The position numbers and the translations under genes were made by a program. The notes below the pieces were generated by a model. That model was not told where the DNA came from. It searched no databases and saw nothing but the letters and a program-made list of their open reading frames with translations. Below, piece by piece: positions 41,722 through 48,664 of a stretch of DNA of 55,363 bases (within the stretch, counting starts at the first letter, position 1; the number at the start of each line of letters is the position of its first letter). This stretch comes from a virus (lineage: Duplodnaviria > Heunggongvirae > Uroviricota > Caudoviricetes): IMG/VR virus record IMGVR_UViG_2721755498_000004; one strand, given 5' to 3'.

Positions 41722-43725
41722 TTAACGAACCAGATGCAGGAAGTGCAGGTGTTTTTCGTACTGGTCCAGTATGTCATTAATCAGCTGTTCCTGATTCCAG
41801 CCCATTACATCATAATTTTGGCCGCCCTCTTTGAGATAGACTTCAGCGCGATAATATCGATGTTGTTCACTCTGCTGCTCATCATTATCCAGCGCAGCGA
41901 GCGCGAAGGTCGGTGAGTTATACCCGCGAAGCCTCACTTCATATATATAATTCAGCTCGTTGCCCAAATCGACTTCAAGGCGAATACGATCCTCGGCGGC
42001 GTCACTGATGTGGCTTATCGTTCCCTGCTTGTTAAGTTCCTCCTGAACCAGCGTCATGGCGGGTTGGATAATGTCGTCCATAAAACGTTTCACAAGAGAG
42101 CGCTTCGGCAAATACGCGATATTGCGTAACCTTCTCTGCCAGGGAATTGGGTTACGTGCAGCCGTAGGAGCAATAGTCGCCATGCTAAGGCTTTCACGCT
42201 TGGTTAAATCCCGACGCAGGGCTTTTAACAGTCCGTATATGGATATTAATAAGATAACTGAGAAGGGCAATGCACTCGCTATCGTTACGGTTTGCAACGC
42301 ACTCAGCCCCCCTGCGATCAGCAGGGCAATAGCAACAACGCCCATGAGCGATGCCCAGAAAATTCGCTGCCAGACGGGCGTGTTTGCCACCCCACCTGAT
42401 GCCAGAGTATCCACAACCATTGCCCCCGAATCAGCAGACGTTACAAAGAAGACGATGACCATCGCCATTGCAATGAATGACAGCACGGAAGAGAACGGGA
42501 AATGCTCCAGGAAATTAAACAGGGCAAGCGCAACATCCTGCTGAACGGTATTGGCGAGGTCAGTGGCGCCCTGGTTCATGATGAGATAGATGGCGCTGTT
42601 TCCAAACACCGTCATCCACATGAGCGTAAAGCCGGCGGGAACAAACAACACGCCAGTCACGAACTCACGAATTGTCCTGCCGCGGGAAACGCGTGCAATG
42701 AACATACCTACAAACGGCGACCATGAAAGCCACCATCCCCAGTATAATAATGTCCAGCCCCCCAGCCAGTTGCTCGACTTGGGTTCATACGCGTAAAGGT
42801 TGAACGTTTTACTCACCAGTTCCGACAGATAACCACCCGTATTTTCCACAAATGACTTCAGCAGAAGCACAGTGGGACCCAGGCACAAGACCAGCGCCAG
42901 GAGCAACACCGCCAGGCCCAGATTAAGCTCAGACAGGATGCGTATTCCCTTGTCCAGGCCGGACACCACCGAAATCGTCGCTAACCCCGTGATGACCACG
43001 ATCAAAATGACCTGTACCGTTTCATTGATGGGCACGCCGAAAAGATGGTTCAAACCGGCATTCACCTGCAATACACCGTAACCCAGCGATGTTGCAACGC
43101 CAAAGACAGTGCCTATCACGGCGAAGATATCAACCGCGTGGCCTATAGGCCCGTAAATGCGATCGCCGATAATGGGATAGAGCGCAGAACGCAGCGTTAA
43201 AGGCAGACCGTGACGGTAACTGAAAAAGGCCAGAATCAGCGCCACGATGGCATAAATTGCCCATGCGTGCAGACCCCAGTGGAAGAACGTCAGGCGCATG
43301 GCTTCCTTCGCTGCCGCAACGGTCTCTGGAGTGCCGACAGGTGGCGAAAGATAATGCATCACAGGTTCGGCAACGCCAAAGAACATCAGGCCGATCCCCA
43401 TCCCTGCCGAAAAAAGCATCGCGAACCAGGAGTGGTAGCTGAAATCAGGCTGCGCATGGTCTGGGCCCAGCTTTATATCACCGTAACGTGAGAGTCCAAG
43501 GAACGTGACGCTCAGTAAAATCAGGGCCACAGCAAGTATGTAGAACCAGCTGGCATTCGTGAAGATTTGTTGCTGAAGTAGTTTAAAATTTTTGTCGGCG
43601 ACATCCGGGAATACGGCGGCAAAGGCGACAAGAAGGAAAATTAGCAAAGCAGATGTAAAGAATACCGCTTTGTTAATCTGGCTTGTAGACTTCTTTGGGG
43701 TTGTATCATTTTCACTCATAATCAT
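41722..43725 (-). CDS. BCCT-family transporter (BetT-like)
   Basis: 667 aa; 12-TM core with Trp-rich segment (WTLLYWGWWLSWSPFVGMFIARVSRGRTIREF) typical of BCCT carriers, plus a long cytoplasmic C-terminal extension as in BetT. Confidence 0.85.
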   Translation of the reverse strand: MIMSENDTTPKKSTSQINKAVFFTSALLIFLLVAFAAVFPDVADKNFKLLQQQIFTNASWFYILAVALILLSVTFLGLSRYGDIKLGPDHAQPDFSYHSWFAMLFSAGMGIGLMFFGVAEPVMHYLSPPVGTPETVAAAKEAMRLTFFHWGLHAWAIYAIVALILAFFSYRHGLPLTLRSALYPIIGDRIYGPIGHAVDIFAVIGTVFGVATSLGYGVLQVNAGLNHLFGVPINETVQVILIVVITGLATISVVSGLDKGIRILSELNLGLAVLLLALVLCLGPTVLLLKSFVENTGGYLSELVSKTFNLYAYEPKSSNWLGGWTLLYWGWWLSWSPFVGMFIARVSRGRTIREFVTGVLFVPAGFTLMWMTVFGNSAIYLIMNQGATDLANTVQQDVALALFNFLEHFPFSSVLSFIAMAMVIVFFVTSADSGAMVVDTLASGGVANTPVWQRIFWASLMGVVAIALLIAGGLSALQTVTIASALPFSVILLISIYGLLKALRRDLTKRESLSMATIAPTAARNPIPWQRRLRNIAYLPKRSLVKRFMDDIIQPAMTLVQEELNKQGTISHISDAAEDRIRLEVDLGNELNYIYEVRLRGYNSPTFALAALDNDEQQSEQHRYYRAEVYLKEGGQNYDVMGWNQEQLINDILDQYEKHLHFLHLVR

Positions 43726-44522: not shown

Positions 44523-45599
44523 TTACCCCCTGAAGCCCGGCGGAATTTCGTTATCCGGTTCAGAAATATGATTCACACAACGCTGGTTGTTCGTGCCGCT
44601 TACCGGGAGCAACCAGGGGTTCTCAAAATTCCGGTCCGGTCCAAAAAACGTCGTCGCTCGCTGAACAAATTCCGTTCCCGTTTTCCCGGTAGCCGCCAAG
44701 TATCTTGCGTAACGCCTCACGCCATCCAGCATGGCCTCTGGTGGCACCCCCTCGCGTAATCTGGCCTTCCAGGCACTGAAAGCGGATTTCTTCGGGTTTG
44801 CCCCAGCACGCAACGGGTACTCCCGCCAGACCTGTTCGAACACATCCGGATAATCCACTCGTCCCACAGACTGCCCGGTGTTTTCCGGGACTACCCGATC
44901 GGCTTCCCGCTGAATGGCGGAATCGGCTTCAGGCTGCTGCAGTTGGTGTGATTGCTCCGCCCTTGCGGTCATCACCTGCTGCACAGCGCCCGAATCGGCT
45001 TTCAGCGCATACGCTGAATCGGCTTCCGGTGTCGTGCCTGCTGGCTGACCAAGATTGACGGTCTGAACATCCCCTGCCTGGTTCGTGGCGTTTTTTACGC
45101 CATGGACCATAGTGTTTTGATCTTCTTGATCTGTATCTTTATCTGTATCTTTATCTGTCGTGACTCGTCGTGACATGTGCGTGACATTTCGTGACGCGCC
45201 GTGACAATCGCCATTTTGTTCCCGCTTTCTTTCCCTCTCTCGCTGCGCCCTCTTGCGCTCTGCAGGAGATTTTGCGGTTTGCGAAATATTGCCGTTGTCC
45301 TCTTTAAGCACCTGGCGTTTTTCCCATCCAGTGATTAAATCACCATCAAGTACCCGCCCCTGCATCGTCTGCAAAATTGAATCAATTACCTCTTCTGTCA
45401 CGTCGAGCGCACTTGCCAAATCTTCTGTCGTGACATCAATGTGACCTCGCGTGACATTTCGTGACGCGCTCACCAGGAGGTGGATATACACTGCCATCAC
45501 TGTTGCAATTGGCTGTCCTGACACCCTGGCAATTGTTCGCCACTTAGGGTCATTTGGCATGTCATGCCATAATCTGAGCCAGGCGTTAGCCATACTCAC
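44523..45599 (-). CDS. replication initiator-like protein (lambda O-position), contains iteron-like repeats
   Basis: 358 aa; N-terminal domain, internal acidic TDKDTDKDTD linker encoded by DNA repeats, C-terminal domain; located after the Cro-like and YdaT-position genes. Confidence 0.5.
   Translation of the reverse strand: MSMANAWLRLWHDMPNDPKWRTIARVSGQPIATVMAVYIHLLVSASRNVTRGHIDVTTEDLASALDVTEEVIDSILQTMQGRVLDGDLITGWEKRQVLKEDNGNISQTAKSPAERKRAQRERERKREQNGDCHGASRNVTHMSRRVTTDKDTDKDTDQEDQNTMVHGVKNATNQAGDVQTVNLGQPAGTTPEADSAYALKADSGAVQQVMTARAEQSHQLQQPEADSAIQREADRVVPENTGQSVGRVDYPDVFEQVWREYPLRAGANPKKSAFSAWKARLREGVPPEAMLDGVRRYARYLAATGKTGTEFVQRATTFFGPDRNFENPWLLPVSGTNNQRCVNHISEPDNEIPPGFRG
45129..45205. 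repeat. iteron-like array 1: tandem ATCTGTATCTTT x2 then five CGTGAC repeats at 10-11-bp spacing
   Basis: CGTGAC at about 45159, 45169, 45180, 45190, 45200; read directly from the sequence. Confidence 0.6.
45430..45470. repeat. iteron-like array 2: four (C/T)GTGAC repeats at 10-11-bp spacing
   Basis: Repeats at about 45430, 45441, 45451, 45461; the 21-bp block gcgtgacatttcgtgacgcgc (45450-45470) is identical to 45179-45199. Confidence 0.6.
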
Positions 45600-46355: not shown

Positions 46356-46384
46356 AGCTACTCCTTAGTAAACACAGCAAAGAA

Positions 46385-46462
46385 TACCCATAGGTAAACA
46401 TAAGTCAATACCCACAGGTTGTTTACCTTGCAGTAATCGCATCTATTATTTACCTATGGACA
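46385..46462. promoter_or_regulatory. candidate operator cluster between the Cro-like gene and racR
   Basis: TACCCATAGGTA (46385-96), TACCCACAGGTT (46409-20), TACCTATGGACA (46451-62, overlapping the racR ATG); consensus palindrome TACCCATGGGTA. Confidence 0.55.
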
Positions 46463-47274: not shown

Positions 47275-47430
47275 ATGCAAAAAATCGACCTCGGCAACAA
47301 CGAATCCCTGGTGTGCGGCGTGTTCCCCAACCAGGATGGAACGTTCACTGCCATGACGTATACCAAAAGCAAAACATTTAAAACCGAAACTGGTGCGCGC
47401 CGATGGTTGGAGAAGCACACAGTAAGCTAA
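47275..47430 (+). CDS. ydaF: small protein YdaF-like (51 aa)
   Basis: Hand-found ORF (MQKIDLGNNESLVCGVFPNQDGTFTAMTYTKSK...) 10 bp after ydaG; size and position match K-12 ydaF. Confidence 0.5.
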   Translation: MQKIDLGNNESLVCGVFPNQDGTFTAMTYTKSKTFKTETGARRWLEKHTVS

Positions 47431-47915
47431 CGATTAAAACGTCTACTCCTGCTGTTCCAGAATAACTTCATAAAATGGGAGTATTTTTCGGTGACGAGAT
47501 AATAAGAACAGTTTGCGCTATCACTCTGATGTTGAATGATGCCCTTCCGTTCTAATTTTTTCATAACCGGGTTACGGCAAGGAGAAGTGATAATAAGATT
47601 TCCTGTTTTAAGGAAATCTTTAAATACAGCGATTTCTTTCTCAGATAAACGAAGCAATACTCGTTGCTCTGGTAGTAATGAATAATGCTTTTGAATATGT
47701 GCTCGCAATCTTGAGAAGGAAATGGCGACCACGAAAGAAAAGGCAAAAACGATAATCTGAAAGAGCCAAGGTATTTCAGTATAAGCATTGAATGCGACAG
47801 TAAACTCTTTCGGTATCAGCCAGAGAGTGAGACCAAAAATGATAATCGTATACATAAGTCTTTCGAGTGGCTCGTTAGCAAAAAGTTTCAACAATGGAGT
47901 AAATACATCCAACAT
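47427..47915 (-). CDS. sieB: superinfection exclusion protein B
   Basis: Hydrophobic N-terminal half with basic C-terminus; 162 aa from MLDVFTPLLK (track ORF starts 5 codons earlier at 47930); position in the immunity region as in Rac. Confidence 0.7.
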   Translation of the reverse strand: MLDVFTPLLKLFANEPLERLMYTIIIFGLTLWLIPKEFTVAFNAYTEIPWLFQIIVFAFSFVVAISFSRLRAHIQKHYSLLPEQRVLLRLSEKEIAVFKDFLKTGNLIITSPCRNPVMKKLERKGIIQHQSDSANCSYYLVTEKYSHFMKLFWNSRSRRFNR

Positions 47916-47966
47916 ATCAATAACTCTCAACTGTAAGGGTATTGAAATGTTGGTAATGACTCCAAC

Positions 47967-48470
47967 TTATTGATAGTGTTTTATGTTCAGATAATGCCCG
48001 ATGACTTTGTCATGCAGCTCCACCGATTTTGAGAACGACAGCGACTTCCGTCCCAGCCGTGCCAGGTGCTGCCTCAGATTCAGGTTATGCCGCTCAATTC
48101 GCTGCGTATATCGCTTGCTGATTACGTGCAGCTTTCCCTTCAGGCGGGATTCATACAGCGGCCAGCCATCCGTCATCCATATCACCACGTCAAAGGGTGA
48201 CAGCAGGCTCATAAGACGCCCCAGCGTCGCCATAGTGCGTTCACCGAATACGTGCGCAACAACCGTCTTCCGGAGCCTGTCATACGCGTAAAACAGCCAG
48301 CGCTGGCGCGATTTAGCCCCGACGTATCCCCACTGTTCGTCCATTTCCGCGCAGACGATGACGTCACTGCCCGGCTGTATGCGCGAGGTTACCGACTGCG
48401 GCCTGAGTTTTTTAAGTGACGTAAAATCGTGTTGAGGCCAACGCCCATAATGCGGGCTGTTGCCCGGCAT
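47967..48470 (-). CDS. insB: IS1 transposase InsB
   Basis: 167 aa recognised as IS1 InsB. Confidence 0.9.
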
Positions 48471-48664
48471 CCAACGCCATTCATGGCCATATCAATGATT
48501 TTCTGGTGCGTACCGGGTTGAGAAGCGGTGTAAGTGAACTGCAGTTGCCATGTTTTACGGCAGTGAGAGCAGAGATAGCGCTGATGTCCGGCGGTGCTTT
48601 TGCCGTTACGCACCACCCCGTCAGTAGCTGAACAGGAGGGACAGCTGATAGAAACAGAAGCCAC
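48389..48664 (-). CDS. insA: IS1 protein InsA
   Basis: 91 aa with zinc-finger-like CxxC..CxxC N-terminus, recognised as IS1 InsA. Confidence 0.9.

Follow-up and report, generated by a model that had tools for sequence, protein, structure and literature searches.

The replication origin oriJ was defined in the Rac prophage of Escherichia coli K-12. In phage lambda, the origin consists of iterons followed, in the direction of transcription, by an AT-rich tract, and sits midway along the gene for the initiator (PMC7466680, PMC3349717, PMC5043065); the lambda iterons are 18-19-bp inverted repeats that bind dimers of the O protein (PMC5043065). Iteron plasmids (P1, F, RK2, R6K and pSC101) carry further iteron arrays outside the minimal origin (PMC5043065). 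Here we describe a stretch of 55,363 nucleotides (the window) that holds a Rac-like prophage at ttcA whose immunity and replication module differ from those of K-12 Rac. A sequence-only reading had suggested that phased repeats in an initiator-like gene of this DNA form a lambda-like prophage origin, perhaps oriJ. The core of that idea is strongly supported by comparative evidence, whereas the identity with oriJ is not. We consider it quite probable, from sequence comparison, that the region is the replication origin of this lambdoid prophage, placed inside the gene for its own initiator.

The early-right operon has the following order: a repressor-like gene, the divergent genes for a YdaS-like (Cro-type) and a YdaT-like (CII-type) protein, the initiator gene, a DUF977/Ren-like gene and then cargo. 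The initiator (replisome organizer) gene is an open reading frame of 358 codons on the minus strand (44523-45599; phrog_3729). RefSeq places its start at the ATG at 45593, giving a product of 356 aa (WP_001262352.1) that is annotated as "hypothetical protein". The protein matches PHROG 3729, "replication initiation protein", from end to end (E 2e-257). No Pfam family scored above its cut-off, and Phage_rep_O gave no hit even at E <= 10; both PF09681 (12.8 bits against a cut-off of 23.3, E 0.12) and TIGR01714 (15.4 against 49.8, E 0.016) fell below threshold. In an AlphaFold2 model, residues 1-95 form a confidently predicted N-terminal domain (pLDDT >90), with the topology helix, loop/strand, helix, helix, beta-hairpin of a winged helix; residues 99-245 are largely disordered and are followed by a three-helix C-terminal domain. 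The fold-level likeness of the modelled N-domain to the N-terminal domain of DnaD makes a distant kinship with Phage_rep_org_N possible. It is within the gene for this full-length phrog_3729 protein, with its winged-helix N-domain, that the repeats lie.

Two arrays of direct repeats, spaced by about one helical turn, are present in the gene, and their spacing is shared by homologues. Array B, the proposed core iterons (45159-45205, minus strand), comprises five GTCACG hexamers on the coding strand. Read on the plus strand, CGTGAC starts at 45159, 45169, 45180, 45190 and 45200, with steps of 10, 11, 10 and 10 bp, in line with the sequence-only reading; Tandem Repeats Finder reports a period-10 tandem array at 45157-45206. 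Array A, the proposed accessory iterons (45429-45465, minus strand), had been described as four copies. The array is there, but only three of its copies are exact (GTCACG at 45460-45465, 45450-45455 and 45429-45434, or CGTGAC from 45460, 45450 and 45429 on the plus strand); the fourth, at 45440-45445, is the one-mismatch variant GTCACA (TGTGAC on the plus strand). In gene order, from 45460 through 45450 and 45440 to 45429, the copies are spaced by 10, 10 and 11 bp. A lone inverted copy on the plus strand (45397-45402) specifies the residues D-V-T, which lie in the turn that links helix 2 to helix 3, and many homologues also have an inverted hexamer at +158; offsets, here and below, are taken from the base that opens the MPNDPKW codon run. 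The window holds 28 copies of the hexamer, and nine of them fall within 307 bp, where about 0.16 would be expected (Poisson P ~1e-13).

The exact 21-mer gcgtgacatttcgtgacgcgc occurs twice (45179-45199 and 45449-45469), 270 bp from start to start rather than the 271 bp first given. Because this distance is in frame, the peptide ASRNVT is duplicated, its two copies standing 90 residues apart in the 358-aa open reading frame; the TDKDTDKD linker that had been noted alongside it is present too. Since both arrays are built of near-identical iteron units, the exact duplication is not independent evidence. The duplicated peptide and the acidic linker are by-products of the DNA repeats and not features in themselves.

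Adjoining array B is an AT-rich tract (45110-45158, minus strand) that is a candidate DNA-unwinding element. Its coding strand is purine-rich (ACAGATAAAGATACAGATAAAGATACAGATCAAGAAGATCAAAACAC). The tract includes the AT-rich 12-mer TCTTTATCTGTA, which had been seen as two tandem units and which Tandem Repeats Finder counts as 2.9 copies (45124-45158), abutting array B. The GC content of 45120-45159 is 0.30, the minimum of the gene, and 45115-45154 is the least stable 40-bp duplex of the gene (dG -43.4 kcal/mol, against a gene mean of -57.3 and sd of 3.7), with a stability comparable to that of intergenic regions. In nearly all homologues, and in each subfamily of them, a tract of 30-50 bp directly follows array B, as (GATAAA/GATACA)n of the form CAGATAAAGATAAAGA...; it is ~65-78% AT even in loci or genomes that are only 31-42% AT overall. 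In all, 41 loci keep such a tract beside array B.

Directly beside the tract, at 45079-45109, lies an imperfect inverted repeat with 13-bp arms (TGGTTCGTGGCGT/ACGCCATGGACCA), which also scores as a terminator-like hairpin on the plus strand. When inverted repeats after the tract were tested for conservation, the median control fraction was 0.31, with 8 of 41 loci at <=0.1; comparable palindromes follow the tract in L008, L016, L022 and L036 and are not general among homologues. We do not count this hairpin as part of the origin.

Repeats inside a gene could in principle owe their existence to the protein. Either protein-level constraint or a simple duplication of peptides (ASRNVT, DKDTDKD) might have produced them with no function in DNA, and indeed protein alignments show no variation at the encoded S, R, N, V, T, G and H, and the 21-bp duplication keeps the reading frame. 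With steps of 10-11 bp, however, successive GTCACG copies fall in different frames, so that one hexamer gives different dipeptides across all three: S-R (G-TCA-CG), V-T (GTC-ACG) and G-H (G-GTC-AC). The linker array of many homologues uses it to encode C-H as well. We compared codon use in 18 non-redundant loci of the GTCACG group, whose mean DNA identity is 68% over 330 nt. Within hexamers, the codons are fixed or nearly so (GCG 94%, TCA 94%, GTC 100%, ACG 100%, GGT 100% and CAC 100%). Outside them, synonymous positions are free: each invariant residue uses 2-6 codons, the commonest accounting for 33-78%, and the Arg codon between two hexamers takes four different forms. Random synonymous recoding of the window gene yielded 0.77 +/- 0.82 GTCACG copies, with a maximum of 5 in 20,000 trials, compared with the 8 observed (P < 5e-5). 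Moreover, array B lies in a disordered and otherwise unconserved linker, and a silent GTC/GTA switch, described below, occurs in concert with it. An explanation at the level of the peptide is thus already contradicted, and we give it next to no likelihood. The sequence-only reading had named, as a result that would refute it, homologues that keep the protein while their DNA repeats are scrambled; the opposite is found, with hexamer codons 94-100% fixed. These comparisons show that selection acts on the repeat DNA, not on the peptide.

Further support for a DNA function comes from a wider set of homologues. We fetched 52 loci encoding relatives of the N-domain, one genome per species. About 25 of them have GTCACG at +95, +105, +115 and +126 (array A) and a further 3-5 copies around +345 to +400 (array B); their GC content ranges from 0.34 to 0.69, and their hosts include Pseudomonas, Bordetella, Acidovorax, Serratia, Rahnella and Chromobacterium. 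More distant relatives without GTCACG carry GTAACG or CGAACG at the same places, in both arrays. Overall, 41 homologous loci have an array of 3-7 copies at the place equivalent to array B, made of the same hexamer type as array A. An unbiased test gave the same picture: of 51 loci, 41 have a phased hexamer (9-12-bp spacing) that is common to region A and region B and 10 have none, and in 0 of 51 does region A have one in common with the upstream or downstream control regions. The repeat therefore co-varies with the DNA-binding domain of the initiator, as GTCACG, GTAACG and CGAACG subfamilies. The concerted change is sharpest among three related enterobacterial loci. At six homologous positions, three per array, the Erwinia locus reads GTCACG and those of Pantoea and Enterobacter read GTAACG; at the V-T codons this difference is a silent GTC/GTA switch. 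The layout also survives exchange of the rest of the protein: Pseudomonas phage P7869, whose N-domain is 69.5% identical and is joined to another C-terminal domain, followed by primase/helicase, keeps both arrays (14 GTCACG copies in 6.4 kb, with 4.2 expected). Matches from a scan of IMG/VR were identical copies only and add no independent diversity.

This pattern bears on what binds the hexamers. Short repeats also serve host factors, repressors, and packaging or partition proteins, and that the initiator binds the iterons is something we infer, so some other DNA-binding protein might be the one that recognizes them. We regard this as extremely unlikely, because the type of hexamer tracks the N-domain subfamily of the initiator across unrelated hosts, from Acidobacteria to Enterobacteria, while the neighbouring genes differ among loci. 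No DnaA boxes were found in or near the initiator gene.

The conserved tract might alternatively be a device of recombination, the (GATAAA)n run and its flanking repeats acting mainly as a joint at which N- and C-terminal initiator modules are shuffled among phages. In keeping with this, at least four or five C-terminal domains that are unrelated to one another are found joined to the same N-domain just after the tract, and the unrelated YdaU protein of K-12 has the same AATAAAGATACAGATAAAGAT at its domain boundary. But a joint would not explain the phased iterons, their covariation with the N-domain or the existence of array A, and it is compatible with the tract serving as an unwinding element. 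We therefore see recombination as an added role at most; as a replacement for the origin it is very unlikely.

Two of the homologous loci, L048 (a Serratia MAG) and L055 (Pantoea sp.), have the same N-domain fused, from ~+290 of the anchor, to a segment containing ...YVYYVATTDGDVVRVGISRNPWARCKDL... that by eye looks like a GIY-YIG/T5orf172-type domain; they have ACTACG repeats in the linker only, with array A absent. The layout of the window gene recurs, with other repeats, in Shigella phage 75/02 Stx (L003, 2681-2997), the initiator of which has a different N-domain and a homologous C-terminal half: AAGGGGCTT occurs twice in the part encoding the N-domain, and inverted AAGCCCCTT-like copies in the linker are followed by (GAACAG)5.5. 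A gene for a DnaC-like loader follows that initiator. In the window, four plus-strand copies of (G)AATCGGCTT at 44898-45029 encode PEADS/KADS/READ repeats in the second disordered stretch of the protein. The Shigella phage has AAGCCGAT copies and PEADS peptides there as well; because it shares only the C-terminal half, repeats of the PEADS type belong to the C-terminal module.

The two arrays differ in what they encode and in how widely they are kept. Array A, at about codons 45-58, encodes the end of helix 1 and then the loop and first strand of the winged helix (SRNVTRGHIDVT), not the recognition helix, and this stretch differs in length among lineages by whole iteron units. Array B falls in the disordered linker; apart from the residues that the iterons and the AT tract encode, nothing is conserved there. 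Array A is missing, and array B kept, in L042, L056 and L048/L055; because some lineages keep B without A, array B seems to be the core and array A an accessory. We also considered whether the arrays are held in constant helical phase with each other, and rejected this, since the distance between them varies from 250 to 350 bp among homologues.

At its other end, the initiator has a tail (GTNNQRCVNHISEPDNEIPPGFRG, the last 24 codons, 44523-44594) that closely matches the C-terminus of DnaT (PDB 6aep, 9zbt). The match of these last 24 residues has an E of 7e-4 with NF002770 and of 0.003 with PDB 6aep, and the tail carries ...SEPDNEIPPGFRG. The DnaT-like ssDNA-binding domain PF17948 was not detected in the initiator, although other proteins with this type of N-domain do have it. 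The resemblance hints that phage initiators may imitate DnaT to reach the helicase-loading machinery of the host.

We propose that the N-terminal winged-helix domain of the initiator binds the 10/11-bp iterons through their GTCACG core, those of array B lying on one face of the helix. The bound oligomer would distort the DNA and melt the adjoining purine-strand tract at 45110-45158, and the C-terminal domain, with its DnaT-like tail, would then bring in the host helicase. Because no phage helicase or loader gene is adjacent to the initiator in the window, the recruitment of helicase is conjecture. Array A, 260 bp upstream within the sequence encoding the DNA-binding domain, would bind the same initiator as an accessory site, and might act by looping, by enhancement or by feedback on expression of the initiator itself. 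Transcription from the early promoter would pass through the origin. A pR-like promoter that could drive it is found by consensus scan at 46381-46408 (minus strand), upstream of the initiator gene and its ydaS-like and ydaT-like neighbours; it is only a candidate because the counts from promoter and terminator scans were not above shuffled expectation. We infer all of these steps, from initiator binding through melting and helicase recruitment to origin firing. A search of the literature outside subscription journals found no paper that describes the origin of this family or links GTCACG with iterons.

A purely regulatory role would account for conserved binding sites as well, and this is the main rival to the origin. 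The arrays would then be initiator-binding sites that control copy number or expression of the initiator and would not be where replication starts; they might do so as an intragenic roadblock to transcription or by handcuffing one copy to another. Array A indeed lies, at about codons 45-58, within the gene for the very protein that binds it, in plasmid iteron systems additional arrays serve for control (PMC5043065), and covariation demonstrates a common binding protein, not the firing of an origin. However, array B is joined to an easily melted AT-rich tract, which an origin needs and a control site does not; array B is the one kept when an array is lost; and no other origin-like element is seen in the replication module. 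Control alone is accordingly an unlikely account of the whole region, although it may well apply to array A.

A more speculative idea concerns how the initiator and its sites change together. The most variable stretch of the winged helix (the loop and first strand encoded by array A, with the copy at the start of helix 3) is written by the initiator's own sites. Were this stretch involved in recognition, the same nucleotides would serve as the site and also encode the protein that reads it. We think this rather unlikely. If true, a change of iteron type would rewrite protein and target at once, with array B following by conversion or selection, and phages would have a built-in route to new origin specificities and hence to replication incompatibility groups. 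No residue outside the array-coded stretch that cleanly separates the three iteron subfamilies passed a strict filter. This is compatible with the idea, bearing in mind that the subfamilies are small.

The module is widespread. The N-domain occurs in about 800 protein clusters; relatives are encoded on at least 591 IMG/VR contigs; at least 80% of this 2.9-kb region is found in 476 complete E. coli genomes; and an isolated coliphage, vB_EcoS-689R5, encodes a protein that is 98.6% identical. Two 50.9-kb circular "plasmids" of clinical P. aeruginosa (CP137943.1 and CP124671.1; L058) are lambdoid phage genomes that carry this N-domain and a gene for a DnaB-like helicase; an element with the N-domain has thus been assembled as an episome. 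In the window itself, non-phage cargo lies directly 3' of the DUF977 gene (41722-43725 and upstream; 13470-19720 of L001), at the position of the lambdoid nin region: a BCCT transporter, a DUF2254 protein, a LysR regulator, a gamma-glutamylcyclotransferase and an MFS transporter. This Rac-like prophage, which has cargo directly downstream of its replication module, may be defective. IS1-type insA/insB reading frames are found at 47967-48664, just past the sieB-like gene (47427-47930); in the near-identical prophage of strain CP53, the annotation shows no transposase between sieB and kilR.

Several implications follow. The analysis provides a concrete candidate origin for a phage replication module that is widespread and unannotated, its initiator appearing in RefSeq as a "hypothetical protein". 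The three natural variants of the iteron, together with the pairing of Erwinia with Pantoea/Enterobacter, in which six sites differ by one base each, lend themselves to the study of origin specificity and its evolution. The sites should also be useful in predicting which prophages are competent to replicate and how co-resident prophages interfere with one another. Finally, a mis-assignment is corrected, in that Rac-like prophages at ttcA do not all have the oriJ module of K-12.

That last point rests on direct comparison with K-12 Rac, which belongs to the same prophage family, occupies the same ttcA site and has its module at the same place, after the ydaS/ydaT-like genes. At this position it carries ydaU (DUF1376) and ydaV. 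YdaU has only its last 19 residues and a DK-rich linker in common with the window protein, the N-domains being unrelated, and GTCACG is absent throughout ydaS-ydaW of K-12. Instead, YdaU has repeats of its own, RTGTTSAA, of which a stretch of 9 kb has seven copies; six fall within ydaU, one of them inverted, and 0 of 200 shuffles reached seven. This cluster (4267-4660 of L005, NC_000913.3, or about 1421266-1421659 in K-12) is followed by the AT-rich AATAAAGATACAGATAAAGAT, as in the window, and then by a C7...G6 palindrome. By analogy, the RTGTTSAA cluster is likely to be the physical location of the real oriJ. We therefore reject the suggestion that the repeats in the window are oriJ of K-12 Rac. 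Because a Rac-like prophage at ttcA here has a different replication module, they are at most its positional counterpart; on sequence grounds, the window holds a different module in a Rac-like backbone. The two modules do share a plan, each having clustered repeats upstream of an AT-rich GATAAAGATACAGATAAAGAT element and a C-terminal ...PPGFRG tail. They differ in that K-12 Rac has a DUF1376 protein with an unrelated N-domain, a different repeat and the DnaC-like YdaV, which the window lacks.

The closest parallel in design is lambda O and ori-lambda, with their variants in Stx phages. As in the window, iterons for the initiator are followed by an AT-rich tract of ~40 bp downstream, in the middle of the gene, and the O gene likewise comes after cro- and cII-like genes under a pR promoter, the counterpart of which in the window is a candidate. 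The N-terminal domain of O binds the origin while its C-terminal part recruits helicase, and we propose the same division of labour for the window initiator. Yet the two initiators belong to different families, that of the window having no Pfam match to Phage_rep_O. Unlike the iterons of lambda, those of the window are 10/11-bp direct repeats with a non-palindromic hexamer core, and so are more like plasmid iterons; the window also differs in that a second array lies within the code for the DNA-binding domain and that neither a P-like nor a DnaC-like gene is adjacent.

Two other groups of systems invite comparison. The replisome organizers of Gram-positive phages (SPP1 G38P/Phage_rep_org_N and DnaD) are matched only far below cut-off by way of PF09681 and TIGR01714, and the hosts of the window family are instead Proteobacteria and Acidobacteria. 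Like the window, iteron plasmids have short direct repeats that occupy a single helical face; in the window, by contrast, the arrays are inside the coding sequence of the initiator, DnaA boxes are absent and the context is that of a phage. The lambda-type design is already known, and the origin proposed here would be a new and well-supported case of it; what is unusual about it is the second array in code for the DNA-binding domain, the concerted switching of iterons, and an AT-rich cassette that is common to unrelated initiators.
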